Below are positions 1-24,298 of a stretch of 64,000 nt of DNA, in pieces. Origin of the DNA: a virus; IMG/VR virus record IMGVR_UViG_3300026097_001139, positions 1 to 64,000 of that record; one strand, written 5' to 3'. Each line of letters opens with the position of its first letter. Within the stretch, counting starts at the first letter, position 1. The notes beneath the pieces are model-generated. The model saw only the letters and a program-made list of their open reading frames with translations, was not told the origin of the DNA and did no database searches. A program made the position numbers and the translations under genes.

Positions 1-1
1 C

Positions 2-205
2 CTGTGGGCCACTGTAGAAGATCGGCATCCTAGAGAAGTAATCGGCAGTGTAAGCGAAGATTTAGCTACACAACTAGAATTACCGTTGGCTGACTTTTCA
101 GACACTGCCAGTGCATTTTTCAAACAGCACTATCGCAGTGACTGGACCAATCGAGGCATAATGGTTCGAGAAATTGATGTAATAAGGCAGATCGAAGGTT
201 GGTAA
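2..205 (+). CDS. 3' end of a gene entering the window (hypothetical)
   Basis: Open frame from nt 2 to TAA 203-205 (..SAFFKQHYRSDWTNRGIMVREIDVIRQIEGW*), overlapping the next start. Confidence 0.7.
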   Translation: MWATVEDRHPREVIGSVSEDLATQLELPLADFSDTASAFFKQHYRSDWTNRGIMVREIDVIRQIEGW

Positions 206-1179
206 CAATAAAGTTAATAACTAGCGATAGCTATGTATGGAATAAGTTATCGGTTATTGCACAGTTTACCTCTGCTGTTTGCAACAAGCATCCAGTGTGT
301 ATAGACCTCTTAAATGAAGGTCCTGCTTTTGAGAATCTTGACATTTATCAGTCTATTAGAGACATTTGCGAAACATACAATTACGATCTTGAAAATATAA
401 CAGTTACAACATGCAATCTCTATCAACAACCCATTGACAATATTGAATTTGAAATAACCTTTCCTAACCATTTTGTTTATAACACTGTAAAGTTGTTAGA
501 AAATGTAAACACGGAAAAAAATATTTCAAAAACGTTTGGATTGTTTGTAGGCCGCAGTAACAGTCACAGACTGGATCTAAGCAGTTATCTGTTCAATCAT
601 TATAAAGATCAAACCGATCAGACTTTTCATTATGATCCATCTGACGAATATCACCGAAATAATCTTGGGTTAGACGGTTTGCTAGCAATAGCAGGTGTTG
701 AGGTTAGTACTGAAATATCACAGTTTTTGCAACAATGTCCTATGATCTCTAGTGAATCAGTGACATACCCAATATTGATGGACCAGCACTGTAACATGTA
801 TTCGCGCTATCAAAACTTTTTTACTGAAGTGGTATGCGAAACATCCTACGTAGGTGAAACATTTTTTCCTACTGAAAAAATATGGAGACCTATTGCAATG
901 ATGACACCGTTTATTGTCCAAGGTCCGCAGAATTTTTTACATAGATTACAAAAGCTAGGTTTTAAAACATTTGATCGTTGGTGGGACGAAGGGTATGCAG
1001 AAGATCCGGCTGACTGGCAGACTGTGGAAATTAAAAAAGTGATAAATTTTTTGTCTAATAAAAGTATCAACGAACTGCAGAAGATCTACAATGAAATGCT
1101 TCCTACTCTAGAGCATAACAAAAAACTTTTAATCGACATGAATCAACAATTTGTGGATAGCACTGTATGTACAAATTAG
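199..1179 (+). CDS. Putative glycosyltransferase-like protein (GT10/fucosyltransferase-like C-terminal motif)
   Basis: VVCETSY..FPTEKIWRPI..PFIVQG..GFKTF..WDEGY motif shared with three other ORFs in the window; resembles the GT10 EN..Y.TEK motif. Confidence 0.5.
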   Translation: MVTIKLITSDSYVWNKLSVIAQFTSAVCNKHPVCIDLLNEGPAFENLDIYQSIRDICETYNYDLENITVTTCNLYQQPIDNIEFEITFPNHFVYNTVKLLENVNTEKNISKTFGLFVGRSNSHRLDLSSYLFNHYKDQTDQTFHYDPSDEYHRNNLGLDGLLAIAGVEVSTEISQFLQQCPMISSESVTYPILMDQHCNMYSRYQNFFTEVVCETSYVGETFFPTEKIWRPIAMMTPFIVQGPQNFLHRLQKLGFKTFDRWWDEGYAEDPADWQTVEIKKVINFLSNKSINELQKIYNEMLPTLEHNKKLLIDMNQQFVDSTVCTN

Positions 1180-2018
1180 ATTACAGTGAATTTTATATTA
1201 CCAACGTATGCAATCTCAGCTGCCCTGGATGCAACAGATTTAACAACTACAACTTTCGTGGTCGACAACGCTGGAAAGATTTAGAGTCAACATATAAAGA
1301 GTGGAGTAAAGTGGTCAGTATTCGTCACTGTGCAGTGTTAGGAGGAGAACCACTGTTGAATGCTGATGTTATTGATTGGTGCAGAGGTATACTTAAACTG
1401 TGGCCCAAGACTTATCTAAGATTGATTACCAATGGATACAGAATCGAACACAGACAAGATCTTTACAATCTCAATTTGGAATACAGAGATAGATTCAGTG
1501 TATGGGTAGGTGTACACAATGAAAATCATGTAGACGATATTGTGTCACGTGTAAAAAAATGGCAACAAGGTCCAATAATTGATACAATATACGACGAAGA
1601 TCCTTACAATGTATATAGAATATTGAAAGATGTCAACGGTATTTCTACTCGCATAGAATATAATTGGTGGTTTCACCAAGGAAGCATAATAGATCAAATG
1701 GGCGTAAAGCAACTGCACAACAGTGACAGAGAAGCAGCACACACCAATTGTCATATGAAAAACTGCCATCACTGGATTGATGGCAAGTTATACAAGTGCG
1801 GCGTAGTTGCATTGTTGCCAGAATTTGATAAGCAACATCAGTTGACATTAAGTACTAGTGATAGAGAGCTAATGCAGAGTTATCAACCTCTAACCATTGA
1901 TTCAAATAACAAAAAACAGTTTTTTGCCAATCTCGGCAACAGTATACCGCAGTGCAAGTTTTGCCCACAACAGTACAATGGCGACCAAATCTACGCAGAG
2001 TATAAAAAAAATCTATGA
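1167..2018 (+). CDS. Radical SAM protein with C-terminal Cys cluster
   Basis: CNLSCPGC (CX3CX2C), LGGEPLL, C-terminal C..C..YKC..CKFC. Confidence 0.9.
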   Translation: MYKLDYSEFYITNVCNLSCPGCNRFNNYNFRGRQRWKDLESTYKEWSKVVSIRHCAVLGGEPLLNADVIDWCRGILKLWPKTYLRLITNGYRIEHRQDLYNLNLEYRDRFSVWVGVHNENHVDDIVSRVKKWQQGPIIDTIYDEDPYNVYRILKDVNGISTRIEYNWWFHQGSIIDQMGVKQLHNSDREAAHTNCHMKNCHHWIDGKLYKCGVVALLPEFDKQHQLTLSTSDRELMQSYQPLTIDSNNKKQFFANLGNSIPQCKFCPQQYNGDQIYAEYKKNL

Positions 2019-3439
2019 AAGGTGATGAAGTAAACAAAGACTTTCGCAGTGGTTTTATTACCAATGCTGAAGACATGAGAGACGCACTGAATCAGGTCGG
2101 ACCCGGCATGTGTCTTGCCAAATGGAAACAGGTCAGTTTACATCTCACCAATGGATATAACAACAGTTGTTATCATCCTCCTTTGCACAGAATCGAATCA
2201 CAAGAACTGGAAAATAATCCCAGTGCACTACACAATACAGCCTGGAAAAAACGACAGCGCAAGCGCATGCTGTCTGGCGATCGTCCAGAAGAATGTAGCT
2301 ATTGTTGGGCCATGGAAGACAATGGCAAACTCAGTGACAGACACTATAGATCAGGAGAACCCTGGGCGGCCAAAGACTTTGACAATATTATTGCCAGCAC
2401 TGGCGATGAAGATGTAAACCCTGCGTATGTAGAAGTAAACTTCAACAGTGCCTGTAATCTACGTTGTAGTTACTGTAGCCCGCAGTTCAGCAGTTCCTGG
2501 ATGGAGGAAACCGAAAAACACGGGGCATGGCCAACCAGTACTCCACACAACGATCCAAAACATTTTCAAGGCGATCGCCGGCCTATCCCAGCAAGAGAAC
2601 ATAACCCATATGTGGAAGCATTTTGGGAATGGTGGCCTGAACTGTATCCTGAACTGGAACATTTTCGCATGACTGGTGGCGAGCCATTAATGGATAAGAA
2701 CACATATCGTGTGTTTGATTATGTATTGGAAAATCCTAATCCCAAGTTGCATCTAAACGTGACCAGTAATTTTAGTGTGGATGAACGTTTGTGGCAAAAA
2801 TACAAAGAACAAGTAAAACGCCTCTGCAACGAAGGGCATGTAGAACACTACATGCAATTTGTCAGTGTAGACGGTTGGGGTAAACAAGCAGAATACATGC
2901 GCAACGGTCTTGACTTTGATCTCATGTGGGACAGATGCAATCAATTTCTCAATGAAATTCCAGAGCGCAGCAGTCTCACTTTTATTGTAACAATGAACAA
3001 TCTCAGTGTGCCCAGCTTGGGTGATCTGTTTGCCGGCATACTAGGACTGAGAAAAGTCTACAGTGAAAGTTATCAACGAGTTTGGTTTGATACACCAGTG
3101 CTGCGTCAGCCGGAATGGCAAAGTCTGCAGATATTGCCTGAAAGTTATGTGCTACAGTTAGAAAGACTGTGGAGTTGGATGATAGCACAAGCTGAAACTC
3201 CGGACACTCGATTAAAAGGATTCAAGGACTATGAAATACAGCGTCTTGATCGTGACATTGCTTGGATGAGAGATGGGCAAAAACTAGACACAGAATATTT
3301 ACATCGTGCTCAGGCAGACTTTTATAGGTTTTTCAATGAACACGATCGCAGAAGAGGCACTGATTTTTTAAAAACTTTTCCAGAAATGCAAGACTGGTGG
3401 AAACTGTGTGAATACAGGAGCAAACGGCATGCAGGATGA
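2015..3439 (+). CDS. Radical SAM protein with N-terminal twitch-like domain
   Basis: N-terminal CLAKW..SCYH..CSYCW; core CNLRCSYC; TGGEPL; ATGA overlap. Confidence 0.92.
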   Translation: MKGDEVNKDFRSGFITNAEDMRDALNQVGPGMCLAKWKQVSLHLTNGYNNSCYHPPLHRIESQELENNPSALHNTAWKKRQRKRMLSGDRPEECSYCWAMEDNGKLSDRHYRSGEPWAAKDFDNIIASTGDEDVNPAYVEVNFNSACNLRCSYCSPQFSSSWMEETEKHGAWPTSTPHNDPKHFQGDRRPIPAREHNPYVEAFWEWWPELYPELEHFRMTGGEPLMDKNTYRVFDYVLENPNPKLHLNVTSNFSVDERLWQKYKEQVKRLCNEGHVEHYMQFVSVDGWGKQAEYMRNGLDFDLMWDRCNQFLNEIPERSSLTFIVTMNNLSVPSLGDLFAGILGLRKVYSESYQRVWFDTPVLRQPEWQSLQILPESYVLQLERLWSWMIAQAETPDTRLKGFKDYEIQRLDRDIAWMRDGQKLDTEYLHRAQADFYRFFNEHDRRRGTDFLKTFPEMQDWWKLCEYRSKRHAG

Positions 3440-4883
3440 TTTTGACAAATTTATCAACAGTTATGATTTGCGTATATTGCACAGTGGCGGTGATTATGGT
3501 AATTTTTTATTGTGGGCAATGGGATGGTTAGATCAAAAAGAATATCAAACCATCCAACAGGTGCAAACTGAAACTGGCAGTTTTCATCATAATATGGACA
3601 ATTATATAAACCGTGACTATGATTCGTCGCCTGTTGAGTTAGCAAATATTTATAATTCTGCCAGTATTGTTCGCTTGCATTATAATATCAACAATATAGA
3701 AAATGACATTTTATCTATTGCCGATACTGGACCTACTATGTTGATTGATCCAACAAACTGTATTTTGGAAATGTTAAACAATCGAGAAACCAAGATGCTA
3801 CAACAAGCCTCTTGTAAAATAGAAAACATTCAAGATTTGGCTTCGCAAATTCAAACATGGTTAAATGTGTTCGACAAGTGCAGGAATTTACAACATGAAA
3901 ATTTGTATATTGTAAAAATGAAACAGTTGGTTAAGAAACCAGCAATAACCATAAAACAGGCTTATCAATGGTGGAGAAAGCATGATGGAGTAAGGTCCAA
4001 TGATGAAATTAACGACACTGTATCTTACTGGCAAAGCAAACAAAAATTTCTAAATCACGACGAAAGTATACTAGCATTGCTTAGATCAAATGATCCTTTA
4101 TTGACACAAAACATACCTGCATTACAAACTATGCTTATAGATTCTGCAAAAAAACTTCCTAGTAAAACAGATATCGACGATCTTATGTACAGCCAATGCT
4201 TGCAAAAATTGCCACCAGACTGCGCAGAATATAAAAACCTAATAAAAAAGCCAACAGTTAGTAACATGTATCCTGCAGTTTTCTATGCTGCAAAAAATAT
4301 TAAAAATCAAGCTGAGGAAATTTACAAACAGGTAGTCAATCGAGATTTATCTTCATGTATAATAGTGTTACACAATGCTGATTCAGCAGGCCAAACTTTG
4401 GTAAACACACTGAATACTATCACAGACCACAATGAGGATTTATTCTATGGGTTGTCTATAAGTAAATTGTCTAGGCTAACGTTAAACGAATGGATAGGTT
4501 TTTTACGTACACGAGCCAAAAAAATAATCATAATAGATAGGAAAAATTTCGAACTAGAACACGCACTTCGTATATCAGAGTGTACTGCATCTGCCGATAT
4601 CAATGATATTTTTTCTTCACCGGACGATTCTACAGTGTTTGATACTGTATACGACCGTAAAAATACTAAAAAAATTCTATTAAAAGATCTTGTTTATTCT
4701 TTTGAGGAAACGATAAGATTGGTGTGTAATTGGACACAAACTGAAATAACTAAACCTATATGTGCTATCGAGTATTTTAAAAACAACAAATACAATAGCA
4801 TAGATCAAGAATACAATAAGATACATGGCGGATTTTCTTACTATGCCAAATATAAAAAAGCAACAGAATATTTACAGAGTTAA
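3429..4883 (+). CDS. Hypothetical AT-rich protein, internally duplicated, possibly sulfotransferase-like
   Basis: Long ORF; start placed at ATG 3429; two similar halves (ILHSGGDYGNFL / VLHNADSAGQTL; MKQLVKKPAITI / LKDLVYSFEETI). Confidence 0.45.
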   Translation: MQDDFDKFINSYDLRILHSGGDYGNFLLWAMGWLDQKEYQTIQQVQTETGSFHHNMDNYINRDYDSSPVELANIYNSASIVRLHYNINNIENDILSIADTGPTMLIDPTNCILEMLNNRETKMLQQASCKIENIQDLASQIQTWLNVFDKCRNLQHENLYIVKMKQLVKKPAITIKQAYQWWRKHDGVRSNDEINDTVSYWQSKQKFLNHDESILALLRSNDPLLTQNIPALQTMLIDSAKKLPSKTDIDDLMYSQCLQKLPPDCAEYKNLIKKPTVSNMYPAVFYAAKNIKNQAEEIYKQVVNRDLSSCIIVLHNADSAGQTLVNTLNTITDHNEDLFYGLSISKLSRLTLNEWIGFLRTRAKKIIIIDRKNFELEHALRISECTASADINDIFSSPDDSTVFDTVYDRKNTKKILLKDLVYSFEETIRLVCNWTQTEITKPICAIEYFKNNKYNSIDQEYNKIHGGFSYYAKYKKATEYLQS

Positions 4884-4886
4884 AAT

Positions 4887-6239
4887 ATGACAAGACTTAT
4901 AAATGAAACAGACTTGGAATTTCGCAAAAGAGTATTAGATAGTAAAAGCTCTAGCTTTTGTGGTGCCAAGTGGTACAATGCTACTATATGGCTTGGATCA
5001 GGAATGACCACCAGTTGCCACCATCCGCCTGCACATCTTGTACCTATTAAAGATGTAACTGAAAATCCCAAGCTACTACATAACACACCAGAAAAAAAAC
5101 AAGATCGAGAAATGATGCAACGGGGCGAACGTCCTCCAGGTTGTGAGTACTGCTGGAAAATAGAAGACATGGGCCGAGATGCAGTAAGTGACCGTGTGTA
5201 CAAAAGTGTAATCTATGACGACAAAGATTTACAAACTGTATTTGAAACAGACCCAAATGCAGATATTGACTTACAAACACTGGAGATCAGTTTTGACAGA
5301 ACTTGTCAACTTGCATGCAGCTATTGTAATCCTGCATTTTCCAGTACCTGGGTAAAAGATGTAAAACGCAATGGTGCATACAGTGGTCTTGTCAGTGATG
5401 GACGTAATCATTTTACACATCCTCATGACAGTGCGCAACTGTTTACAATCAATGAAGAAAATCCATATGTTGAAGCATTTTTCCGTTGGTGGGAAAGTGA
5501 CCTACATCGTACTCTCAAAGAGCTGAGAATCACAGGTGGAGAACCACTGATGAGTGGCTACACCTGGAGATTGATCGAGTGGTTTAAGCAAAATCGTGGC
5601 AAAAGTAAAACACGTCTTGCTATCAACAGCAACCTAAGTTTACCCACTGAAAAGATTCAAGAATTGCTAGACGCTTGTGAAGACATTGAACTAGATATCT
5701 ATACCAGTAACGAAAGCATGGACCAGCAGGCTGAGTATATTCGACACGGATTGAATTGGAACCAATGGCTGCGTAACATGGACTTATTGGTCCGCAGTCC
5801 GCAAATACGCAGTTTGCATAATATGTGCACAATCAACGCATTGTGTTTGGACAGTTTGCCAGAGTTCTTAGACAAGGTACTGACATGGAAGGCTGAGTTT
5901 GGCAAAGACCGTCCTAATTTTACGTTAAACATTTTGCGCTTTCCTAGTTTTCAAAGTCCATTGATATTCCCTGATGATATCCGCACAAAATACAAACAGG
6001 ACCTTGAAGCTTGGTTAAATACAAACAAGCACAATGAGTTGTTGCATCAACACGAAATCAATCATTTGCAGCGTTTAATAGACTACTTAGATGTTGTAAA
6101 AACTCCGCACTCAGAAACGTTCGAACATCCAAAACTTTTAAATGACTTTAAAAAGTTTTATTCGCAGTACGATGAGCGCAGAGACTTGGATTTTGCTACA
6201 GCATTTCCAAAGCTAAACAGCTGGTATTCCCAACTATGA
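4887..6239 (+). CDS. Radical SAM protein with N-terminal twitch-like domain
   Basis: CGAKW..SCHH..CEYCW; CQLACSYC; TGGEPL. Confidence 0.92.
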   Translation: MTRLINETDLEFRKRVLDSKSSSFCGAKWYNATIWLGSGMTTSCHHPPAHLVPIKDVTENPKLLHNTPEKKQDREMMQRGERPPGCEYCWKIEDMGRDAVSDRVYKSVIYDDKDLQTVFETDPNADIDLQTLEISFDRTCQLACSYCNPAFSSTWVKDVKRNGAYSGLVSDGRNHFTHPHDSAQLFTINEENPYVEAFFRWWESDLHRTLKELRITGGEPLMSGYTWRLIEWFKQNRGKSKTRLAINSNLSLPTEKIQELLDACEDIELDIYTSNESMDQQAEYIRHGLNWNQWLRNMDLLVRSPQIRSLHNMCTINALCLDSLPEFLDKVLTWKAEFGKDRPNFTLNILRFPSFQSPLIFPDDIRTKYKQDLEAWLNTNKHNELLHQHEINHLQRLIDYLDVVKTPHSETFEHPKLLNDFKKFYSQYDERRDLDFATAFPKLNSWYSQL

Positions 6240-7654
6240 AAAAAATAAAACTCTATGACAACACTGAATACCGTGAGTGGAAAGATCGAGTTCTGAATAG
6301 CAAAAGTCCCAGCTTTTGTGGCGCCAAGTGGTACAATGCCAGTGTATGGCTTCAGCAAGGCTGGACCACAAGTTGCCATCACAATCCACCGCATGCCATT
6401 GATGTAGAAGAAATCAAAAAAAATCCGCGAGCATTGCATAATACCACAGTTAAGAAAAATGAACGTGCAATGATGCAACGTGGCGAAAAACCAGCCAACT
6501 GTCAGTTTTGCTGGGTCATGGAAGAAACCGACCCGAATAATCTAGCAGACAGATATTGGTTAAGTACCATTGCAAGTGAAGAACAATTGCAAGCAGCATT
6601 TGATGCTCCGGCTGATCAAGATGTTGATTTATTGTATTTAGAAATAGCGTTTGATAGAACCTGTCAGTTGGCCTGTAGTTATTGTTGTCCTAGTATAAGC
6701 AGCAGTTGGGCAACCGACGTGCGCAACAACGGAGCATACGAAGGTTTAGAAACTGATCGCAGGCAACATTACATTTCTCCTTGCGACGACAGCATGACCA
6801 GTCGACCTAACGAAGTAAATGAATATGCAGAAGCATTTTTCAAGTGGTGGGAGGACAGTTTAGCTGGCAGTCTAAAGCAGTTGCGGATTACAGGTGGCGA
6901 ACCAATGATGAGTCCTCACATGTGGAGATTATTAGACTGGCTCGTAGAGAATCCAAACAAGGCAAAGTGCAGAATCGAAATCACTACAAATTTAGCTTAT
7001 GATGACTCAGTAGTAGATAAAATGCTTGATAAAGTGAGCAAAATCGATCTTCCTGTATGGGCATATGTGAGCAGTGAAAGCATCGGAGCCCAGGGCGAGT
7101 ATGTCAGAGACGGGCTTAATTGGAAACAGTGGGAACGTAACATCGATCGATTGATTGCAAGCAAAGACATAGAAGATATCAGTATCATTGGCACAGTTAA
7201 TGCACCAAATGCCGACGGATTTGTTGATTTTTTACGTTGGCTCGTGGAAAAAAAGAAAATAGCAAAACCACTAGGAAAAAATTTAATGTTTACTATTAAT
7301 CCAGTGCGTTTTCCGACATTCCAAAATATTGTAGTGCTGCCAGAAGATATTAGAGAAACCATAGCAGATGAAATTGATGAATTTATGGTTGCCAGTGATG
7401 TTCATAGTGTTATTGATCATTTAGAACGTGACCATATTCAGCGTATAAGCAAATATATTCGTAATGTCGTTAACCCGCATAAGGAAGATGTTACCAAACA
7501 CGACCTTACTCCTTATGAATTGCAACAAGGCAAAAATGACACCGAGCTACTACAAAAAGATTTTAAACGATTTTTTGTGCAGTATGACAAAAGACGAGAT
7601 AAAAATTTTACAGAAACGTTTCCGAGATTGGCTAAATGGTACAACAGTTTATGA
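6236..7654 (+). CDS. Radical SAM protein with N-terminal twitch-like domain (tandem paralog of 4887..6239)
   Basis: CGAKW..SCHH..CQFCW; CQLACSYC; TGGEPM; ATGA overlap. Confidence 0.92.
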   Translation: MKKIKLYDNTEYREWKDRVLNSKSPSFCGAKWYNASVWLQQGWTTSCHHNPPHAIDVEEIKKNPRALHNTTVKKNERAMMQRGEKPANCQFCWVMEETDPNNLADRYWLSTIASEEQLQAAFDAPADQDVDLLYLEIAFDRTCQLACSYCCPSISSSWATDVRNNGAYEGLETDRRQHYISPCDDSMTSRPNEVNEYAEAFFKWWEDSLAGSLKQLRITGGEPMMSPHMWRLLDWLVENPNKAKCRIEITTNLAYDDSVVDKMLDKVSKIDLPVWAYVSSESIGAQGEYVRDGLNWKQWERNIDRLIASKDIEDISIIGTVNAPNADGFVDFLRWLVEKKKIAKPLGKNLMFTINPVRFPTFQNIVVLPEDIRETIADEIDEFMVASDVHSVIDHLERDHIQRISKYIRNVVNPHKEDVTKHDLTPYELQQGKNDTELLQKDFKRFFVQYDKRRDKNFTETFPRLAKWYNSL

Positions 7655-13362: not shown

Positions 13363-13383
13363 TTACAGTGCAAGGGGAAAACC

Positions 13384-13512: not shown

Positions 13513-13520
13513 GGCAGTAT

Positions 13521-15038: not shown

Positions 15039-15046
15039 ACTAAAAA

Positions 15047-15754: not shown

Positions 15755-15761
15755 GAGAATT

Positions 15762-16103
15762 ATGACACATTTAGTAACTGATAATTGTATCAAATGCAAA
15801 CACACGGATTGTGTTGAAGTATGTCCAGTGGATTGTTTTTATGAAGGTCCGGACTTTCTAGTAATCAATCCTGATGAATGCATTGACTGTGCAGTTTGTA
15901 TTCCAGAGTGTCCTGTTGATGCCATTGTAGCTGAAGATGAAGTGCCCAATGACGGAGTTGATTGGTTTAAAATCAACGCTGAATTAGCTGAAAAATGGGC
16001 AGATAATAACATTACAGAAAAACTAGATCCTTTACCTGATCACGAATCATGGACAGATGTGCCAGGCAAGGTTCAATATATTCAACACTATATGGAAAGT
16101 TAG
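15762..16103 (+). CDS. fdxA: Ferredoxin (FdxA/FdI-type dicluster)
   Basis: [34 protein letters not shown]; AGGAG SD. Confidence 0.93.
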
Positions 16104-16105
16104 TA

Positions 16106-17125
16106 TTATTGGTCTCCTGAGCATTGTTGCCCGCAATGCTCGGCGCATGCTACTAACCTGCCGGTTTCGATAGTTTCTTTCCAGGTCGGTGGGATACTTT
16201 TAAACCATTCAACACATTCTTCTAGACTGTATTTAAATAAATCGTTTTTGGCTACTAACTGTTTAATTTGCCCATTTCGATAAATCATATCGCCTGCGCG
16301 ACCCGTGTATGTTTCTGGTGCATTGCCAATGTAGCAGCAAGGATATACTTTGCCATCGCTGCTTACATATATATTTCTATCTTTCATTGCTTCGCAAACA
16401 ATGGTTTTTTGATTATATATTTTTTGAGTATACTTGCTTGGAGAACTATCTATGAACTCTTTTGTAGTAAGGATGTGCTCAACATCAATTTTAAATTCCC
16501 GGCCGATCCAGTATATCACGTTTTTGTTTTTATCTATTACAGGACCATTATCGCGCCTGTGGTCTTTAACTTCAAATTGATCAAACCCTAGTTGTTTGCT
16601 AAGTTCACGTGCTTCTTCGATTTGATGTTGATTATGTTCAAACACCATAAAAACCCAACTAGTTTTACCGCCTGCATTTCTAACTGTTTGTGCATTCTCT
16701 AGTATTGTATTAAAATCAGTATTTCTTCTGTACAGTTTATGAGTATCTTCGAGGCCGTCTATTGCAAAGAAAATTCTGTCTGTCACACTAGCAAGATCTT
16801 TCCAAAAATCTAGATCACGTGCATTGCCGTTTGTGCTTATAATTAAATTAGCGGTTGGATTATGCTTACGAAAGTATTGCATAATAGCAGGCGTGTCGGG
16901 ATTCATTACAATATCGCCAAAGTTGCCGCACACATTTATTTTGTGAAGTTGTGCAATAAACTCTGGTTTAAATATTTGTTTTACTTCCTTTAGCGTCAAG
17001 TTCCGTTCAACATAACCTGCATTAGTAGGGTGCCCGAACACATTTCTCAGGCATAAAGGACACTCTGCGTTGCATAAACTTGATAGTTCTAAGTCTAATC
17101 GGCGTATAAACTTATAGTGATACAT
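16106..17125 (-). CDS. Radical SAM protein with C-terminal SPASM/twitch domain
   Basis: CNAECPLC; C-terminal C..GKVYPCC..CAEHC. Confidence 0.9.
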   Translation of the reverse strand: MYHYKFIRRLDLELSSLCNAECPLCLRNVFGHPTNAGYVERNLTLKEVKQIFKPEFIAQLHKINVCGNFGDIVMNPDTPAIMQYFRKHNPTANLIISTNGNARDLDFWKDLASVTDRIFFAIDGLEDTHKLYRRNTDFNTILENAQTVRNAGGKTSWVFMVFEHNQHQIEEARELSKQLGFDQFEVKDHRRDNGPVIDKNKNVIYWIGREFKIDVEHILTTKEFIDSSPSKYTQKIYNQKTIVCEAMKDRNIYVSSDGKVYPCCYIGNAPETYTGRAGDMIYRNGQIKQLVAKNDLFKYSLEECVEWFKSIPPTWKETIETGRLVACAEHCGQQCSGDQ

Positions 17126-18162
17126 TACAAATAACTTTCTAAACCACCTTTTCTAGAAAGATCTTGTGTACAGCAGCTGATTCCACCGTCCCAGAAGTAA
17201 CTGTGACGAAGTTCACTTACTATAGGATTTATTTTATGTTTTTCGCAGTAGTCAAATACCTGCTTATTATAGGCTGAGAATATGACATTCTCTTCATCTA
17301 GCACAAGGCAATTAACATCAAACACAGTGTCTTCGACAAATCCAACCCATTGACTTAAATAGCTGTCAACAAAGTTTGAAAATTCTGGAGTAGGTGTCTG
17401 TCCTGTCACATACCAACGCCCGTTAAAGTTTTCCTGTTTAAACTTGCCAACTTCCATAGCCGCCCATATTGAACTGTCCCAAATCTTACAAACGTCCCAA
17501 CCAGGAAAGTCGCCTGCTAGATCCAGCTGGTCGTCCCATTTACTACTTAATAACACACCTGGCTTGAGAATAGCAAACACTGCATCGCCATGGCCATCAG
17601 TTACAGCTTCGTGTATACGATAGTCTGGGCCTAGCACATTGTCAACAATCCAGCGTGTTTGTTCTGGTTTCAAATAGTCTGAATTGTCAAAGAAAACGTC
17701 TTTACCAACACGTACAATACAACTAGCACTGGCTCCGTTGAGCACACAGTTTTCGTCCCATTCTCCTTGGTGCGGATTAATCACTTGATCCGGATTGTGT
17801 TGTTCTAAATCTGCACAGATATTATCCAATTCTTGCACAGGCAGCACACGTAGTAATTTGTCGCCTAGTGTAATCTGCCAGTCTCTTGGCGTAAGAGGCG
17901 GAAGCGGAGCACCTTGATCAGCAATCTGTTGTTCATGAAAACGGTTTACATCGGGTAGGTCTGGTCTACGGACCTTTGCACCATATTCTTCTATGGTCTT
18001 TTGTAGGTTTTCTAGATCTTCGGCACTTTCTTCAAGTATCTGACTGAGTTGATTGAATACTTGTTTGTCTTCGATAAACTCAAAATGTTCTGGTGTAAAC
18101 ACACTGCCTATAATTACTTCTTCCAGTGGTTGCCAACTAGTGTAACTGTTAATTTTACTCAT
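17125..18162 (-). CDS. Amidinotransferase (glycine/inosamine-phosphate amidinotransferase family)
   Basis: INSYTSWQPLEEVIIG, PRD, GHGD, DGGISCCTQDLSR (catalytic Cys region). Confidence 0.85.
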   Translation of the reverse strand: MSKINSYTSWQPLEEVIIGSVFTPEHFEFIEDKQVFNQLSQILEESAEDLENLQKTIEEYGAKVRRPDLPDVNRFHEQQIADQGAPLPPLTPRDWQITLGDKLLRVLPVQELDNICADLEQHNPDQVINPHQGEWDENCVLNGASASCIVRVGKDVFFDNSDYLKPEQTRWIVDNVLGPDYRIHEAVTDGHGDAVFAILKPGVLLSSKWDDQLDLAGDFPGWDVCKIWDSSIWAAMEVGKFKQENFNGRWYVTGQTPTPEFSNFVDSYLSQWVGFVEDTVFDVNCLVLDEENVIFSAYNKQVFDYCEKHKINPIVSELRHSYFWDGGISCCTQDLSRKGGLESYL

Positions 18163-18170
18163 AATTTAAT

Positions 18171-19295
18171 TTATTCTTCCCATACATATGGATCTTTTTT
18201 GCGTACAGCAAAAGTTAGATACGTGTTTATTTTTTCCATGTCATGATCGTTGCGCATTACTAGAAATTCATCAGCAAAGTGCAATTCTATTTTCTGCTGT
18301 AAAGCGAGATTTAACAATTCATTTCTTCGGTGGTATTCATCTGGTAATGAATGTATGCTAGGTAATACTATTCCGTCAGCATCACATGTTTGTAAATACC
18401 ATTCGAGCATCATATGCCAATCGTTGTTGTCAAATTCTCCATCTTCATAAGATAGTTTTATTTTATACATATCACAATAACGGCTGATAGTGCTTCTTTG
18501 CATTGGATAACTAAGATTTTTTCCATATTCGCTAGCCCAACTAACAAAACTAATAAATTTTTTGTCTGACAAATCAATTGGCTGGCTAGTGTAGTAATCG
18601 CCGGGGATCCTAAAAAATCCGCCTGGGCTTCGACGACCGTATTCTTCTCCTTTGAGTAAAATTCTAACGTCGATACTTGCCCTAGTGTAGCCTTCGTTAT
18701 TGTTTACGTTGCCGTGTATATGTTCTTGGAAAAATAAGTGACTTTGTCCGGGGCTCAAATTTACTGGCCAGGCATGCTTTAAACTTTCTTCTTCGAATTT
18801 TTTCATTGACCATTTTTCTAATATTGTTTGACGGGTAATCCTACGGCTATCTTCTAAGTCCAAGATCCACATTGTATTAGTATCTCGAGCCTCAGTTAGA
18901 GGATTCCAAAAGGTTCTGCACCCTCGTCCATTGCCGACAAAGATGCCTTGGTGAAAGATCAGTTTTCTATTTTCTTTGGCTTGATTCGGAATAACAACAC
19001 GCATAGTTGCTTGTCGTTGAATCAAATAAGGCAAATTGTCGATTATAGGTTCAGCATATTCTTTAGCAAAAGAATCAATTAACTCCATCCAGTCTTTACG
19101 TAGGAATGCTGACTGAACATAGTATTGTATTTTTAATATTTCGTCAGGGGTAAATTTTTTGTGAATAGTTTCGAAACAGTTAACACTAGGGTGAATTTCT
19201 TGAACAACTTTTAGGGCCCATTTGGTGAAATCATATCTACCAAGGTCATAATTTAAGGTTTTATTGTTCCAGTGTATTTGATGACTCTTAAGCAT
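18171..19295 (-). CDS. Fe(II)/2-oxoglutarate oxygenase-like domain (H-Q-G variant) fused to a resolvase-like C-terminal domain
   Basis: FHQG..W.PLT..HIHGNVNN..TRASIDVR; C-terminal MQR..I..YC..DGIV..SI..LP, reminiscent of the sporadic carbohydrate cluster families (TIGR04324/TIGR04323, from recall). Confidence 0.7.
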   Translation of the reverse strand: MLKSHQIHWNNKTLNYDLGRYDFTKWALKVVQEIHPSVNCFETIHKKFTPDEILKIQYYVQSAFLRKDWMELIDSFAKEYAEPIIDNLPYLIQRQATMRVVIPNQAKENRKLIFHQGIFVGNGRGCRTFWNPLTEARDTNTMWILDLEDSRRITRQTILEKWSMKKFEEESLKHAWPVNLSPGQSHLFFQEHIHGNVNNNEGYTRASIDVRILLKGEEYGRRSPGGFFRIPGDYYTSQPIDLSDKKFISFVSWASEYGKNLSYPMQRSTISRYCDMYKIKLSYEDGEFDNNDWHMMLEWYLQTCDADGIVLPSIHSLPDEYHRRNELLNLALQQKIELHFADEFLVMRNDHDMEKINTYLTFAVRKKDPYVWEE

Positions 19296-19355
19296 ACATA
19301 TTCCCTTTTGTAGCTATACTTATTGTAAGTAAAACTTGTATTTTTACTTTCTGGG

Positions 19356-20483
19356 TCATCTATCAATACCCTTTATTTTAAAATCTTTTTTCATTTGCTC
19401 TAGCATCAGTTCTAGCTCTGTCCAGAGCACAGTTTCAAATCCGCCGTTGTAGAAATGTTCGTAATTATGCTGAATAGTCGGCATCATTGCCTTGTACATG
19501 GTTGTTCGTTCATCAATTGTCATACTATCTATCTTTTTGCATAACTCAGCTACTTTTTCTAGTCTACGATAATCATCTGGCTCTTGATCATAGCTTTCGT
19601 CCCAAAAATCGTCGAATGTTCTAAATCCATAAAGCTTGAGATACTCTAAACTGCCTTGTGGAGCAACCAGTATAAATGGCATTTGTAAACAGATTGGCTT
19701 GAATGTTTTTTCTGTAAGATGATGTCTGCGACCAGAATACACTGTTTCTGTAACAACATAGGCAAAACTTTCTGCTGATTCTTCAAACAAACTCAACCAA
19801 CAACTGTGCATAGGATGATCTGTTTCGCCTGGGAATTGCCAAGGTAAATCAGCATCACAAAGTGTCTGTTCAATGTCTGGATAATGTACGCTGAATTTTG
19901 CAGCAATATCTTCTATGTTTGTATTTTCCACCGGACAGGTTCTTGGACAGCTTAACCAAGCATTTTGTATTTTTTGTTTAATAAATTGATACATTAGCAG
20001 CACTCTATGATCACGTTTACCGCCTACGATGCGTGTAGGACATATAAAACTGCGGTTCATGGTCCTGTCTTCTGGTGCAGGCATCAACCATGAACGATTG
20101 TATCCTCGATACCAATCCATGGCTGCCCACCCGTGAAAGAAATAGTAATAATGTTTCCATCCGTAATCATCGCATATTTGTTCAACAAACTCGCTGTTGT
20201 GCTCACTGGTAACAATTGCTTTACCAAATGCTTCCCTGTCAAAGTCAAGATCTCTACTGCGTTCCGCTACCTCGCCAAAAAGTGGTCTGTGTAGGTCCAA
20301 ATGAATTGGCTCTTGGTCGTGAAAGTATATATAATGTAGTTCATGGAGATCATGTCCATAATTATATAAACTATCCGGATCACTTCTTCCGGGAGGATCA
20401 CAGAAATACATTCTGCATAAAGGTATATTTTGTTTTATCCACGGCCAAAACACATTGTTATAAAGTTCGTCAATTCTAATCAT
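19356..20483 (-). CDS. Putative glycosyltransferase-like protein (GT10-like motif)
   Basis: VVTETVY..HLTEKTFKPI..PFILV..GFRTF..WDESYD. Confidence 0.5.
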   Translation of the reverse strand: MIRIDELYNNVFWPWIKQNIPLCRMYFCDPPGRSDPDSLYNYGHDLHELHYIYFHDQEPIHLDLHRPLFGEVAERSRDLDFDREAFGKAIVTSEHNSEFVEQICDDYGWKHYYYFFHGWAAMDWYRGYNRSWLMPAPEDRTMNRSFICPTRIVGGKRDHRVLLMYQFIKQKIQNAWLSCPRTCPVENTNIEDIAAKFSVHYPDIEQTLCDADLPWQFPGETDHPMHSCWLSLFEESAESFAYVVTETVYSGRRHHLTEKTFKPICLQMPFILVAPQGSLEYLKLYGFRTFDDFWDESYDQEPDDYRRLEKVAELCKKIDSMTIDERTTMYKAMMPTIQHNYEHFYNGGFETVLWTELELMLEQMKKDFKIKGIDR

Positions 20484-23481
20484 GTTTGATATTTTTTACC
20501 TAGGAAATCGTGCACCCAAAGGTGTACATGCTGTTCGTGCTAGAGATATAGATCATGCGTGTGAAATGTCTCGTACTCGATATTATTGGATTGTTGATTA
20601 CTTATCTGATTACAGAGAGTGGGATTTTCTTTGGGAACCAGCACCATGGGAATCACATCAGCGTCATGCTTGGCCTAACCAGCATCAACTAGATGGTGGC
20701 ACATATCTGGTGCCAAAAGCAGGCTTCGCAGAAACCAATTGGCATGAATCGCCCGGTGTGCACAAATACAGCGACCCTGATCTATGGTACATACCAGACT
20801 ACATAGACCCAGCAAGTATTGATTTACAGTGGAGTCCAGATCCAATGGATCCACCTTACATATACGAGTTTCCTGTAGAATGGGGATGGAACAGAATAGG
20901 TGGACCAGAATATAGAATGCCTAATGCTGTGGGTAGAAAATTTGTCAGTGATTTTGTTGCAACAACTCAACATGATAGATCACTGTTTGATATACAGGAT
21001 AATCTAGCTGATGACGATCCACTATTCCGCTGGCGCCCAAATCCAACAGAACCTCCTTACGTGTATGTGTTCGGCAATCAATGGTGGCCGGCTACGCAAA
21101 GAACCAGTGTTACGTATACAGTAGAAGGTGCAACAGAAAAGAAATATGTTGCAGATATTTCCGCCACTCGTATTGCGGACACCGCGCACTATCGTACGCT
21201 GGAAAACTGCAAGTTTGACTACAGTTGGGAGCCAGATCCAGCGGATCCACCTTATGTGTATGTGTTCGGCAATCAATGGTATTCTGGCGAAATCATGCCC
21301 ACTGTGGAGTACAATGTACCTGGTGCCACTGAACGCAAATTCCTGGAATATCCGCAGGCAACACTGTTTGCTACACAAGAAAATTGGTACGTGCCTGATC
21401 ATGAACGTGACTTTGACTTTGACCGCAGTTGGTGCCCAGATCCTGGAGATCCGCCTTACATGTATGTGTTTGGCAATCAGTGGCACAACGCTGAAATAAT
21501 GAGTACCATTGAATATCATGTGCCCGGTGCAACAGAGCGCAAGTTTATGGAAGAGCCTGTTGCTACACTACTTGCTGACCAAGACGGTTGGACAGTGCCC
21601 GAAGAGGTTGATGCAGATGCAGTAGACTTTAGTTGGATACCAGATCCCGGGGATCCTCCTTACATTTATCACTTTGGCACTGAGTATCAAAGCAGTGTAA
21701 ATTTAACCTACACTGTAGAAGGTGCTACGGAAATTAAATTTGCAGGTGACATACCCAAGCGCAAGCCTGATACAAGAGCAGTTAAAACCCTTGATATTTT
21801 TTATATGGATCGTTCTAATGCAGTATCTCGCAGTCGCTTTGAACAGTTACAAGAACGCTACCCTGGCATACAGAAAGCACGATATTTTGGCAGTGTGTTT
21901 GACACTGTAAAGAGATGCGCTGGTAAATCTAAAACCCAGCGTTTTTGGGTAATCGGTAGCGAAAATGACTATTCAGAATTTGACTTTGATTGGCATCCAG
22001 AACCTTGGCAACGGCACATGACTCATGTGTTTGGAAGTCAGTGGAATAAATGGAGCGATACATTCTTAATCAATCGTTGGGAGTTTGACAGACACAGTCG
22101 TTGGGCAAAAAGCATTGAAGAATTTCCAAACTTGAACTTTGTGGAAAATCAAACAGTGCAAGCACCAGCGGACGCTTACAGCATTTACTTAATTGATCAC
22201 GGCAATCCAGAGAGCTTGCAAACATTTGAATACCTTGAACAGAACTACAGAGTGGTTAAACAGGCTAGATATTTTGACAACTATTTAGACACACTAAAAC
22301 GACTTGTTGCTGACGTAGAAGAAGAATACATTTGGGTTGCCAGCTCTGTATGTGACTATAGCCAGTTTGATTTCAGTTGGCAACCCGAAGCATGGCAACG
22401 TGAAATGCTTCATGTGTTTCCTAGTAACGAACAAAAGTTTGGTGATACGTTTTTCTTGCATGTGCCAAGTTTTAAGCGTGGCTGTGATGTTGAGTTATTG
22501 GATTGGTTTGAAACCGTGAACTATGTAGAAGTACAGCAAGCACCTCGATGGCCAATACCAGTGGTAAAACATAATGAATCTACACATGTTATGGCAGTAA
22601 AGAATCACACAGCGCAAGCGCCACTCTCACTGTTTACCAATGAATCTGCTCCAGTGAAATATCCTACGGTGAGTCTATGGCGCCGCGAAACCAAAACTGT
22701 TGTTCCGTTAGACCGCGGTGCCTCCAGTGTAATTGTGCCAAAAGAAGCACATGCCTTAGTTCGAACACAGATATATGACTACCCATACATAGACAAAACA
22801 CATAATACAAATGCAGTTGAGCCACTGGAGATAGTGTTTGTCAGCAACGGAGAAACCGTGGCACAGACGCATTTACAGCGTCTACGTGCGGCTCTGCCCG
22901 GCGATACACAGTTACACGTAGTAGAAGGTGTAAACGGACGACTAGAAGCATATAAACAAGCTGCTAATAGCGTAAAAACCGATTGGTTTATCCTAGTACC
23001 TGCTAAATTGGCGGTTTCTGACGAGTTTGACTGGTTTTGGCAACCAGACCGATTACAACAGCCAAAGCACTATATTTTCCATGCTTACAACCCTGTTACG
23101 GGCTTAGAGTATGGGCACATGGCTGCTGTTGCGTATAATCGTGAACTATTATTACAAAGTGCAGGAGATCAGCTGGATCTAGCCATGGAAAAAGCACACG
23201 AAGTAGTTCCAGTTCTAAGCGGCGTTGCAGAATACGGCGATGACATAACAGAGTGGCGCACAGCTTTTCGTGAAGTGCTAAAGTTGCGTGCAAGTTTGCC
23301 TGATATTGAAAATGAGTACAGACTTGGTGTTTGGAAGGAGTGCACTAGTAAGGTAACCCAAGAAGCAGTAGTTGCGGCAATGGAATACTATGACAGTGTT
23401 AATGGCAACGTAGACAAGCTACAAAATTCCTTTAGTTGGGATTGGGTAAACCGCCATTACGAAAAATTGAGTGCCAACTAA
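20482..23481 (+). CDS. 999-aa modular Trp/Pro-rich protein with four GT-A-like modules and five internal repeats
   Basis: Four DIF(Y/V)..W(V/I)..FDF.W.P modules plus five W.P.P.(D/E)PPY.Y.F repeats. Confidence 0.6.
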   Translation: MFDIFYLGNRAPKGVHAVRARDIDHACEMSRTRYYWIVDYLSDYREWDFLWEPAPWESHQRHAWPNQHQLDGGTYLVPKAGFAETNWHESPGVHKYSDPDLWYIPDYIDPASIDLQWSPDPMDPPYIYEFPVEWGWNRIGGPEYRMPNAVGRKFVSDFVATTQHDRSLFDIQDNLADDDPLFRWRPNPTEPPYVYVFGNQWWPATQRTSVTYTVEGATEKKYVADISATRIADTAHYRTLENCKFDYSWEPDPADPPYVYVFGNQWYSGEIMPTVEYNVPGATERKFLEYPQATLFATQENWYVPDHERDFDFDRSWCPDPGDPPYMYVFGNQWHNAEIMSTIEYHVPGATERKFMEEPVATLLADQDGWTVPEEVDADAVDFSWIPDPGDPPYIYHFGTEYQSSVNLTYTVEGATEIKFAGDIPKRKPDTRAVKTLDIFYMDRSNAVSRSRFEQLQERYPGIQKARYFGSVFDTVKRCAGKSKTQRFWVIGSENDYSEFDFDWHPEPWQRHMTHVFGSQWNKWSDTFLINRWEFDRHSRWAKSIEEFPNLNFVENQTVQAPADAYSIYLIDHGNPESLQTFEYLEQNYRVVKQARYFDNYLDTLKRLVADVEEEYIWVASSVCDYSQFDFSWQPEAWQREMLHVFPSNEQKFGDTFFLHVPSFKRGCDVELLDWFETVNYVEVQQAPRWPIPVVKHNESTHVMAVKNHTAQAPLSLFTNESAPVKYPTVSLWRRETKTVVPLDRGASSVIVPKEAHALVRTQIYDYPYIDKTHNTNAVEPLEIVFVSNGETVAQTHLQRLRAALPGDTQLHVVEGVNGRLEAYKQAANSVKTDWFILVPAKLAVSDEFDWFWQPDRLQQPKHYIFHAYNPVTGLEYGHMAAVAYNRELLLQSAGDQLDLAMEKAHEVVPVLSGVAEYGDDITEWRTAFREVLKLRASLPDIENEYRLGVWKECTSKVTQEAVVAAMEYYDSVNGNVDKLQNSFSWDWVNRHYEKLSAN
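20785..21780 (+). repeat. Five tandem ~67-aa coding repeats (W.PDP.DPPY.YVFGNQW..EY.VPGATE.KF)
   Basis: Visible in the protein and in near-identical DNA (gtgtatgtgttcggcaatcaatggt at ~21061 and ~21256); boundaries approximate. Confidence 0.85.
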
Positions 23482-24298
23482 TGTTATTTTGATATGCATT
23501 TATTTTTTTGCTCAAAAAAACTGTATCAGGTAGACACTTTGGGTTAATGCCAGGAAATTCAGACCCTGGATTGTAACCTGGATCGAGTACCACTTTTTTT
23601 ATGCTGTCTAGGATTTCTTGTTCGTGTTCAATAATACGTTGTTCTATTGAAGAAAAATCATAATCAAACACTTGTTTCAGCCATGTTAGTGATTGTAGCG
23701 GAAATGGATGCAAATCCATAAATTTTTCTTTGAAGATTTTTTTTAATTGTTTTTCTGACTCCTTAACACTGAACCCTATAACTTTGTTAATACTCGGTAA
23801 TAACCGACTATATGTATCTTTATACACTTTTAATAGAACTTCTCTTTCTGGCGGAGGATGACCTACGGGCATAGTAAGTTCGTTAAATGACGAATGGTGT
23901 ATCTGTGCTTCGGTATTGTCTAAATAGGCCATTGTTGTGGTAATTAGATTAAGTTGATTGATCATTTTGCCAATGAGATAATCAGAAATTTCGATTGTAG
24001 GATCTCGTTCCCACTTTAAACATGATTTGCCATTGTGATTGTGTAAGTTTTCGTGTCTGTTTGGCTCAGTCCAAACAACTATTACTAAATCATCTTTTGT
24101 AAATTTGTGCAATTTATTTGCAAGCACAACTTGATTAGCAATGTATTGATTTGCACATGCGCAACGGCCGTAGTTATATGTTTTTATATCAGTGGCAAAT
24201 TGAATAATTTCTGGCCACATAGACCACCAATAACTGGTGAGACTACACCCAAATGCAAATATTCGCTCCGGTTTTTTATTATACAGAGGAGTTGACAT
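23432..24298 (-). CDS. SGNH/GDSL-like protein
   Basis: FAFGCSLT, NYGRCACANQYI, late DLHP motif. Confidence 0.55.
   Translation of the reverse strand: MSTPLYNKKPERIFAFGCSLTSYWWSMWPEIIQFATDIKTYNYGRCACANQYIANQVVLANKLHKFTKDDLVIVVWTEPNRHENLHNHNGKSCLKWERDPTIEISDYLIGKMINQLNLITTTMAYLDNTEAQIHHSSFNELTMPVGHPPPEREVLLKVYKDTYSRLLPSINKVIGFSVKESEKQLKKIFKEKFMDLHPFPLQSLTWLKQVFDYDFSSIEQRIIEHEQEILDSIKKVVLDPGYNPGSEFPGINPKCLPDTVFLSKKINAYQNNISWHSIFRNGGLPNPN

Follow-up and report, generated by a model that had tools for sequence, protein, structure and literature searches.

Virus-encoded glycosylation and DNA hypermodification are already known as kinds of system, and so are all of the enzyme superfamilies that make up the subject of this study, a radical S-adenosylmethionine (SAM) gene module that fills positions 1 to 24,298 of a 64,000-nucleotide stretch of viral DNA (here called the window). 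The window spans the leading 64 kb of the 88,386-base IMG/VR virus record IMGVR_UViG_3300026097_001139 (CheckV completeness, ~25%). In the virion glycosylation of chloroviruses, mimiviruses, and mycobacteriophages, soluble glycosyltransferases and sugar-nucleotide enzymes are encoded beside structural genes, with no lipid-carrier export; we know of no radical SAM arrays, amidinotransferase, or carbamoyltransferase in those systems. The mycofactocin and PQQ pathways combine a small peptide that has an invariant C terminus with a radical SAM/SPASM enzyme, and mycofactocin adds a glycosyltransferase. The module resembles them in that a gene for a tiny peptide, whose C terminus carries an invariant aromatic motif, lies among genes for radical SAM enzymes and glycosyltransferases; it is unlike them in having five enzymes with an N-terminal twitch domain (N-twitch) rather than one C-terminal SPASM enzyme and in the highly basic character of its peptide.

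Most of the radical SAM genes of the module fall in NCBIfam NF033640 (N_Twi_rSAM, twitch domain-containing radical SAM protein; curated cutoff, 170 bits), which is a catalogue entry only. The genes of the record that score above its cutoff all have an N-terminal four-Cys twitch followed by a CxxxCxxC core, and in the module the family takes the form of five fixed orthogroups in one operon. To our knowledge, no NF033640 member has a known substrate, and a biochemical study of any member was not found in the literature searched. That literature also held no study of the N-twitch family or of the module and, in agreement with the original prediction made from the DNA letters and open reading frames (ORFs) alone, no characterized phage pathway with this enzyme set. 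A passing remark notes 12 radical SAM genes in one marine T4-like genome (PMC5332604). What is new is the combination: a five-member fixed set of N-twitch radical SAM enzymes, guanidino- and carbamoyl-adding enzymes, and a conserved micro-peptide, together with in-cluster cofactor supply, in a clade of abundant uncultured jumbo phages. The original prediction proposed a self-contained phage pathway making a heavily decorated glycan for virion proteins, DNA, or the host surface; to it we add an analysis of selection on a micro-ORF, checks for acceptor machinery in complete relatives, and a structural ranking against the T4 glucosyltransferases. We conclude, with a probability of about 50%, that a conserved jumbo-phage module has its core in these 24 kb and most likely runs a cytoplasmic sugar-tailoring pathway that works on a soluble acceptor.

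A conserved gene order in uncultured jumbo phages

With one cluster protein as the query, 52 IMG/VR loci were recovered, 44 of which share a gene order. If genes are named by their first coordinate in the window, orthologs of 2015, 4887, 7636, 9276, and 10983 lie on one strand and are followed by 12265 and the carbamoyltransferase gene; next, on the opposite strand, come the amidinotransferase and GT-B genes, often with a homolog of the N-terminal half of a 999-aa protein. The features of this core are listed below with the number of loci in which each was found, counts that are bounded by the length of the loci.

2015-3439, plus strand: N-twitch radical SAM protein, core orthogroup 1 (NF033640, 326 bits; 41 loci; clade support of 100 in the Shimodaira-Hasegawa-like approximate likelihood ratio test, SH-aLRT)
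4887-6239, plus strand: N-twitch radical SAM protein, core orthogroup 2 (NF033640, 303 bits; 42 loci)
7636-9357, plus strand: N-twitch radical SAM protein, core orthogroup 3 (NF033640, 404 bits, residues 174-571; 42 loci)
9276-10577, plus strand: N-twitch radical SAM protein, core orthogroup 4 (NF033640, 332 bits; 38 loci)
10983-12299, plus strand: N-twitch radical SAM protein, core orthogroup 5 (NF033640, 287 bits; 34 loci)
12265-13362, plus strand: conserved 365-aa protein of unknown function (34 loci; AlphaFold2 model with predicted local distance difference test [pLDDT] score 85 and predicted template modeling [pTM] score 0.84)
13384-13512, plus strand: conserved micro-ORF, 42 aa here and 33 aa in most relatives, ending in ...RKRDPFIYK
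13521-15038, plus strand: NodU/CmcH/TobZ-type carbamoyltransferase (PF16861, 1e-49, 169 bits; PF02543, 1.6e-37, 130 bits; 27 loci)
17125-18162, minus strand: amidinotransferase of the AGAT/StrB1/SxtG/HsvA superfamily (12-ortholog profile against PDB; 20-21 loci)
19356-20483, minus strand: GT-B-fold glycosyltransferase-like protein (AlphaFold2 model, pLDDT 86; 20-21 loci)

Seven accessory genes (1167, 3408, 6236, 16106, 18171, and those for ferredoxin-NADP reductase [FNR] and ferredoxin) occur in 2 to 6 loci each. Comparison of synteny across relatives had been put forward as a check on the original prediction, and the genes do co-occur in fixed order. The translational coupling that it described is also seen, as most plus-strand genes are joined by start/stop overlaps of 4 to 35 nt or by gaps of less than 10 nt.

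The module locus is held by a complete relative of 328,292 bp with direct terminal repeats (G001) and by a second relative of 316 kb that is 91% complete (G002), and both encode a T4 gp23-type capsid protein (326 to 332 bits). Because of these capsid genes, the terminal repeats, and the classification of the record as viral in IMG/VR, the window is assigned on sequence grounds to an uncultured T4-like jumbo phage, and a bacterial polysaccharide island of the lipopolysaccharide (LPS) or capsule type, the counter-explanation considered with the original prediction, is excluded. The host clade of the module is uncultured T4-like jumbo phages of about 320 to 370 kb, in which the module appears to be common. 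The window genes outside the module are of phage type, including ThyX, ClpP, a QueE-like gene, and a T4 RNase H-like exonuclease, along with a MoxR-type ATPase that has a DUF2201/VWA partner and an 813-aa Peptidase_G2/pre-neck-appendage-like protein. A megablast search of the 24 kb against 50,697 deposited phage records returned no match.

Seven contigs labeled as parts of bacterial metagenome-assembled genomes (MAGs; L056-L062, assigned to Haliscomenobacter, Legionellales, Rickettsiales, Porticoccaceae, Flavobacterium, and Polynucleobacter) match the phage genes at 48 to 70% identity, and at least four of them (L056-L059) have the jumbo-phage order. Judged from their gene content, they look like phage contigs mis-binned into MAGs.

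The N-twitch radical SAM enzymes

Pfam and NCBIfam scans bore out the original count of eight radical SAM genes within positions 1 to 24,298. Six of the eight score 279 to 404 bits against NF033640, and record genes 50329 and 75456 score 226 to 243 bits; in all, 8 genes of the 88-kb record exceed the cutoff, versus 0 in 14 control genomes. Beyond the five core members, the N-twitch genes of the window are as follows.

6236-7654, plus strand: N-twitch radical SAM protein, an extra copy of orthogroup 2 (NF033640, 279 bits; 43% identity to 4887-6239)
50329-51585, plus strand: further N-twitch paralog outside the 24 kb (NF033640, 226 bits)

In every N-twitch gene, the SPASM/twitch match precedes the PF04055 core match. 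An alignment of eight paralogs (18 to 27% identity to the first sequence) has invariant core cysteines C120, C124, and C127 (CxxxCxxC), and the N-terminal cysteines C5, C24, C66, and C69 are invariant as well. The best solved match to the twitch domain is BtrN (PDB 4M7T), the butirosin 2-deoxy-scyllo-inosamine dehydrogenase, which acts on an aminocyclitol/sugar-type substrate. In profile alignment, the N-terminal domain of the family aligns to BtrN residues 167-238, the C-terminal twitch of that enzyme (E = 2e-5), and the family cysteines fall on BtrN C169, C187, C232, and C235, which we take to be the ligands of its auxiliary cluster. The two differ in architecture, as the twitch lies C-terminal to the core in BtrN but N-terminal in the module enzymes. 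The radical SAM core of the family gave about equally weak matches to anSME and viperin. None of the eight radical SAM genes in the 24 kb matched the B12-binding domain PF02310, so the analogy first drawn with the B12 radical SAM enzymes GenK and GenD1 does not apply there; weak PF02310 matches occur only outside the 24 kb, at 33703-35238 and 69200-71149.

A maximum-likelihood tree of 105 N-twitch proteins recovers the five orthogroups with SH-aLRT support of 99 to 100 each, and gene 6236 nests inside the 4887 (orthogroup 2) clade. Bacteroidota, Bacillota, Spirochaetota, and Elusimicrobia carry 1 to 7 N-twitch copies of the 7636 type, as found in a search that was seeded with the 7636 type and is hence biased toward it. 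Outside the phage module, the five-orthogroup set was seen on Bdellovibrionota-labeled contigs. On a contig labeled Bacteriovoracaceae UBA6144 (L064), every one of the five phage orthogroups is represented by a copy that falls within the group or next to it; genes for 12265, the micro-ORF, the carbamoyltransferase, and the amidinotransferase are all missing from this contig.

The orthogroup 3 enzyme carries an N-terminal extension of ~170 aa (7636-8160, plus strand) with no detectable family. The extension is common to about 12 relatives, and the majority of orthologs are ~428 aa long and lack it.

An Elusimicrobia MAG contig (L081, 25-15158) holds six tandem genes in which long TPR-repeat regions are fused to N-twitch radical SAM domains (five of the genes were scanned with Pfam and the sixth by BLAST only). 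In the collection of deposited phages, an N-twitch protein query found distant copies only: four each in Vibrio phages K566 and K567 and two in Ralstonia phage RsoM2USA. Phage K566 is a cultured T4-like phage whose four distant N-twitch genes lie among hypothetical genes at 160 to 168 kb of its record (L053); it shares no other module gene, and it offers a possible laboratory entry point to the family.

Tailoring enzymes and glycosyltransferase-like proteins

The enzymes that accompany the radical SAM set belong to families with defined group-transfer chemistry: NodU/TobZ-type enzymes transfer carbamoyl groups to the hydroxyls of sugars, and AGAT/StrB1-type enzymes transfer amidino groups to amines. 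Both Pfam domains of the carbamoyltransferase are above their cutoffs, and the first ~80 profile positions of its N-terminal domain are unmatched. The amidinotransferase has no Pfam match; a profile of 12 sequences matched AGAT (1.5e-26), SxtG (9e-21), HsvA (1.5e-19), and StrB1 (5.8e-19). H191, C330, and several Asp residues are invariant in the 12 sequences, and C330 falls within the stretch aligned to the AGAT C terminus, in the region of the catalytic Cys of that enzyme.

Although 19356-20483 has no Pfam or NCBIfam match, its predicted structure is a GT-B fold. Foldseek matched the model to OtsA and WaaG (probability 1.0, E = 2.6e-4), and nearly all of the top 40 rows in VIA-align were GT-B enzymes, led by T4 beta-glucosyltransferase (Z 10.9) and T4 alpha-glucosyltransferase (Z 10.4) and followed by POGLUT2 (Z 9.9). 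The T4 enzymes, which glucosylate hydroxymethylcytosine in DNA, are minimal GT-B proteins of similar size, also from T4-type phages, and 271 to 279 of their residues align to the model; sequence identity is only 6 to 7%. Further GT-B-like proteins are encoded at three places.

199-1179, plus strand: GT-B-like protein (C-terminal 100 aa 39% identical to 19356-20483, E = 9e-20)
48030-49175 and 49176-50321, plus strand: two tandem GT-B-like paralogs (42% identical; C-terminal domain common to 199 and 19356)

The 199-1179 protein has no Pfam, NCBIfam, or PHROG match, and its homologs sit between radical SAM genes in 16 relatives. Other sugar genes lie close by as well. A nucleotidyltransferase is interleaved with the radical SAM genes here, and a short-chain dehydrogenase/reductase (SDR) sugar-nucleotide epimerase/dehydratase occurs within the array in 8 relatives.

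10574-10996, plus strand: nucleotidyltransferase (cytidylyl/adenylyl, RfaE domain II-like; PF01467, 4.7e-15; TIGR02199, 2e-22; 8 loci)

The bacterial homologs have neighbors of the same kind. On a Crocinitomicaceae chromosome, the N-twitch genes adjoin a carbamoyltransferase, a GT4-UbiA-GDSL fusion, a sulfotransferase, a GDSL protein, a UDP-glucose dehydrogenase, and an epimerase. Such polysaccharide-type clusters (e.g., L120) have the same accessory set as the phage, but they hold 1 to 3 N-twitch copies, all of the 7636 type with which the search was seeded, and they lack 12265, the micro-ORF, and the amidinotransferase.

Support genes

The pathway had been described as self-contained, and the genes found here and in relatives agree with that description. 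Three support genes are present in the window.

15047-15754, plus strand: FNR, Fpr type (NF008178, 2.8e-34; PF00175; PF00970)
15762-16103, plus strand: ferredoxin, 7Fe type with DUF3470 tail (PF11953, 3.5e-14; PF00037)
60587-61687, minus strand: SAM synthetase (MetK), outside the 24 kb (PDB MetK match, 6e-114)

The metK gene lies 45 kb from the cluster here and inside the cluster in 10 relatives. In 9 relatives an FeS_assembly_P protein is encoded after the carbamoyltransferase, and in 14 a PNP_UDP_1-family protein is encoded between two radical SAM genes; we assume from its family, that of the methylthioadenosine/5'-deoxyadenosine nucleosidases, that this protein acts as such a nucleosidase here. 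Between them, metK, FNR, and ferredoxin here and the FeS_assembly_P and PNP_UDP_1 genes in relatives make the module self-sufficient in SAM, electrons, and Fe-S assembly and probably also in the removal of by-products.

A predicted sugar-tailoring pathway and its candidate acceptors

Because the neighbors of N-twitch genes are sugar enzymes in both phages and bacteria, and because of the chemistry of the transferase families, we read the module as a cytoplasmic sugar pathway. Each N-twitch radical SAM enzyme would remove a hydrogen atom from a carbon of a sugar or aminosugar, with oxidation, epimerization, deoxygenation, or C-C chemistry as the outcome, as in BtrN-type enzymes. The tailored product would then gain an amidino group at an amine and a carbamoyl group at a hydroxyl, after which GT-B proteins would pass the decorated product to a soluble acceptor made during infection. 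SAM is supplied by the MetK of the phage, and electrons by its FNR and ferredoxin.

The candidate acceptors are a virion protein, phage DNA, and the micro-ORF peptide. A virion protein is a candidate because the module follows a tail-fiber gene in relatives, and DNA is one because the GT-B model is nearest to the T4 DNA glucosyltransferases and the phage has genes of the 7-deazaguanine type, such as the QueE-like gene. The ThyA-family deoxynucleoside monophosphate hydroxymethylase (PF00303) is absent from both G001 and G002, which speaks against the classical path to glycosylated DNA by way of hydroxymethyl-pyrimidines. Also absent from these two genomes are a priming phosphoglycosyltransferase (PF02397 or PF00953) and a Wzx-type flippase (PF01943), which argues against a lipid-linked surface glycan built by the phage itself.

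Taken together, these results support the original prediction in part. Phage origin, co-occurrence of the genes, cofactor supply, and sugar handling (GT-B folds, a cytidylyltransferase, the SDR epimerase in the arrays of relatives, and the sugar-type neighbors of bacterial homologs) stand. The GenK/GenD1 analogy does not hold within the 24 kb, the SGNH protein is unconfirmed, and a host-surface glycan made by phage enzymes alone is disfavored. These phages devote 10 to 20 kb of genome, plus SAM, reductant, and Fe-S support, to chemistry that has not yet been described, and five anciently diverged N-twitch members in fixed order promise new C-H functionalization reactions. Whichever acceptor is the true one, the outcome would be new among phage self-decorations or metabolites, whether a decorated glycan on the virion, a DNA base hypermodified with sugar, or a molecule derived from a peptide, and in each case it would probably matter for recognition of the host or for escape from its defenses.

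A conserved micro-ORF and the 12265 protein

The micro-ORF occupies the sole sizeable gap in the operon, 13363-13520. We found it in 39 loci of phage type, the distant arrays L050 and L052 among them. In the majority of these loci, its two ends reach into the neighboring genes, overlapping the 12265 ortholog at its stop codon and the following gene (metK or carbamoyltransferase) at its start codon. Its constant neighbor is 12265 rather than the carbamoyltransferase. The peptide is highly basic, and its C-terminal 20 residues are nearly invariant. The last 20 codons are found as 36 distinct nucleotide sequences, and 11 DNA versions encode an identical set of 20 residues. Variability in these codons is 0.40 at the third position versus 0.14 at the first and 0.07 at the second, and codon differences in the micro-ORF number 5447 synonymous versus 2155 nonsynonymous. 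These codon-position and synonymous-excess statistics indicate that the micro-ORF is translated and subject to purifying selection. None of the bacterial loci has it, nor do Vibrio phage K566 and the single-copy phage loci. The presence of such an ORF in the core opens a reading in which a peptide is the substrate, one that the original prediction did not contain.

The 12265 protein has no family match in Pfam, NCBIfam, PHROGs, a PDB profile search, or the protein Atlas, no Foldseek match, and no match in a protein search of the 50,697-record phage collection. Its family comprises more than 6600 metagenome clusters at 90% identity, on contigs of up to 370 kb, every one of them annotated as hypothetical. 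The AlphaFold2 model resembles a cyclophilin-like barrel with an inserted helical bundle at Z 7 to 8 only, a range that could arise by chance. No longer fused forms of 12265 were found, which is weak evidence.

Alternative readings of the module

Several observations weigh against a sugar pathway. It leaves the micro-ORF and 12265 unexplained, and since no NF033640 member has a known substrate, a sugar is deduced from the neighboring genes only. The nucleotidyltransferase, FNR, and ferredoxin are confined to few relatives, and other GT-B folds trail the T4 glucosyltransferases by just about 1 Z unit. In addition, SPASM/twitch radical SAM enzymes act mostly on peptides, as maturases, and in Elusimicrobia the N-twitch family is joined to TPR repeats, usually a protein-binding module, in an architecture suggestive of binding to a protein or peptide. 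The last two points also speak for a peptide scaffold, in which the micro-ORF product would be the precursor or carrier, 12265 its binding partner, and the radical SAM set the machinery that rebuilds the invariant ...DPFIYK C terminus. The peptide would next be amidinated (e.g., on its terminal Lys), carbamoylated, and glycosylated, in a logic like that of PQQ, mycofactocin, and PEARL-type pathways. The wide occurrence of the micro-ORF, distant arrays included, its overlap with both flanking genes, and the strong selection on its C terminus all fit such a role, and a cyclophilin-like barrel is a Pro-peptide-binding fold, although the structural match of 12265 is at Z 7 to 8 only. On the other hand, no such peptide accompanies the N-twitch genes of bacteria, even on the five-orthogroup Bacteriovoracaceae contig, or of phage K566; Pfam scans detected no RRE/PqqD domain or peptidase in the module; nucleoside diphosphate (NDP)-sugar genes sit within the arrays; and a role for the micro-ORF product as a small subunit or as a translational leader is also conceivable. 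We regard a peptide scaffold as unlikely, and its more specific form, in which the five N-twitch enzymes and 12265 act on the micro-ORF C terminus and further tailoring yields a peptide-derived small molecule or cofactor, as less likely again. Were the peptide reading true, the module would be a phage counterpart of PQQ/mycofactocin logic in thousands of environmental jumbo phages.

The sugar pathway that we prefer also has rivals that keep the sugar or small-molecule chemistry but change its destination. The enzymes might decorate LPS or capsule precursors by way of the lipid carrier and export machinery of the host, for example, in superinfection exclusion. The surface-polysaccharide character of the bacterial clusters is in line with this, as are the sulfotransferases, UDP-glucose dehydrogenase-like ORF, and epimerases of the window and the below-cutoff matches of the 2-oxoglutarate (2OG) oxygenase to models from Leptospira O-antigen regions. 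Such remodeling is nonetheless improbable in our view, given the lack of PF02397, PF00953, and PF01943 in the complete and 91%-complete relatives, the cytoplasmic look of all the module proteins, as expected of Fe-S enzymes, and the location of the module in relatives, where it adjoins tail genes of the same strand. A free aminoglycoside- or aminocyclitol-like molecule bearing guanidino and carbamoyl groups, by the logic of streptidine, bluensidine, or saxitoxin, would account for the joint presence in the core of a StrB1/SxtG-type amidinotransferase and a TobZ/SxtI-type carbamoyltransferase and for the affinity of the twitch domain to BtrN. We found no inositol-phosphate synthase, 2-deoxy-scyllo-inosose synthase, or aminotransferase in the core and saw neither an exporter nor a gene for self-resistance; the presence of several glycosyltransferases also favors attachment to a macromolecule, and the free molecule is a rather remote candidate. 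Least probable of all is that there is no single pathway and that the region is a hot spot gathering independent auxiliary genes. The accessory content does differ among relatives, with the seven accessory genes in so few loci each, and extra N-twitch copies are dispersed over complete genomes; yet the five orthogroups, 12265, the micro-ORF, and the carbamoyltransferase keep their order despite divergence to 35 to 60% identity, and the stops and starts of the genes overlap.

Other features of the region and the record

The remaining genes of the 24 kb are as follows.

1167-2018, plus strand: short radical SAM protein, 283 aa, accessory (PF04055, 42 bits; in 6 related loci only)
3408-4883, plus strand: lineage-specific 491-aa protein of unknown function (homologs in L001 and L002 only)
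16106-17125, minus strand: radical SAM protein with C-terminal SPASM-like region, accessory (PF04055, 42 bits; PF13186, 20 bits; TIGR04317, 1.6e-16)
18171-19295, minus strand: 2OG-Fe(II) oxygenase fused to a LIC12192-like domain (TIGR04324, 1.3e-19, and TIGR04323, 6.7e-13, both below cutoff)
20482-23481, plus strand: 999-aa repeat protein of a virus-only family (protein Atlas neighbors all viral hypotheticals)
23432-24298, minus strand: 288-aa protein of unknown function, beginning with an FGCS-type motif, possibly the SGNH protein of the original prediction

The enzyme list first drawn up for the region is largely upheld (carbamoyltransferase, amidinotransferase, Fe/2OG enzyme, cytidylyltransferase, GT-like proteins, and ferredoxin with its reductase), with the exception of the SGNH protein: no ORF of positions 1 to 24,298 matched SGNH/GDSL models at E <= 0.01. 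Neither 3408-4883 nor 23432-24298 had a match in Pfam, NCBIfam, PHROGs, or PDB sequences. The TIGR04324 and TIGR04323 models describe the "sporadic carbohydrate cluster" and were derived from O-antigen regions of Leptospira. The 2OG oxygenase has a paralog of 36% identity at 28163-29290 (minus strand), which matches PhyH. Promoter and terminator scans gave results at chance level.

In relatives, a fixed upstream block lies on the same strand as the array, consisting of a tail-fiber-like gene related to window 30525-32966 and then 5 to 7 ORFs, none with a Pfam match, among them conserved ORFs of 317, 104, 263 (two), and 115 aa. The block is missing from the window record because the contig begins just inside the region. 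Directly upstream of the array, a 308-aa protein (e.g., L016:6242-7210, L014:5464-6390, and L001:493-1416) is the most conserved gene of the region, at 65 to 69% identity among relatives. Its family has at least 8000 metagenome clusters and, with SYDEP and DGD motifs, is GT-A-like in look; it has no Pfam or PDB sequence match. The 999-aa protein is weakly similar to this family (23 to 26%, E about 1e-6); it has no Pfam match, and a tandem-repeat scan of its gene gave no notable result.

The four radical SAM genes, metK, UDP-sugar dehydrogenase, and sulfotransferases that were said to lie elsewhere in the window were all located, the dehydrogenase as a UDP-glucose dehydrogenase-like ORF and the sulfotransferases as two genes, and epimerases are present there as well. 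In addition to 50329-51585 and metK, these include the following.

33703-35238: radical SAM gene, B12-type
38212-39177: radical SAM gene
40203-40967, minus strand: UDP-glucose dehydrogenase-like ORF, 254 aa
63074-63943: radical SAM gene, QueE-like

The UDP-glucose dehydrogenase-like ORF matches the N-terminal and central dehydrogenase domains and lacks the C-terminal UDP-binding domain, and to judge by this match it may be split or truncated. A DpdA-like assignment for 77351-78808 (minus strand) of the record found no support in Pfam, PHROGs, or PDB sequences. All three of the most complete relatives have QueE. In G001, 11 genes are above the NF033640 cutoff, five of them in the array and the others scattered, one directly beside queE. 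Two further twitch-first radical SAM genes lie in the region of the QueE-like gene in the record, and orthologs of one of these two, at record 78808-79836 beside the gene 77351-78808, head the array in seven relatives.

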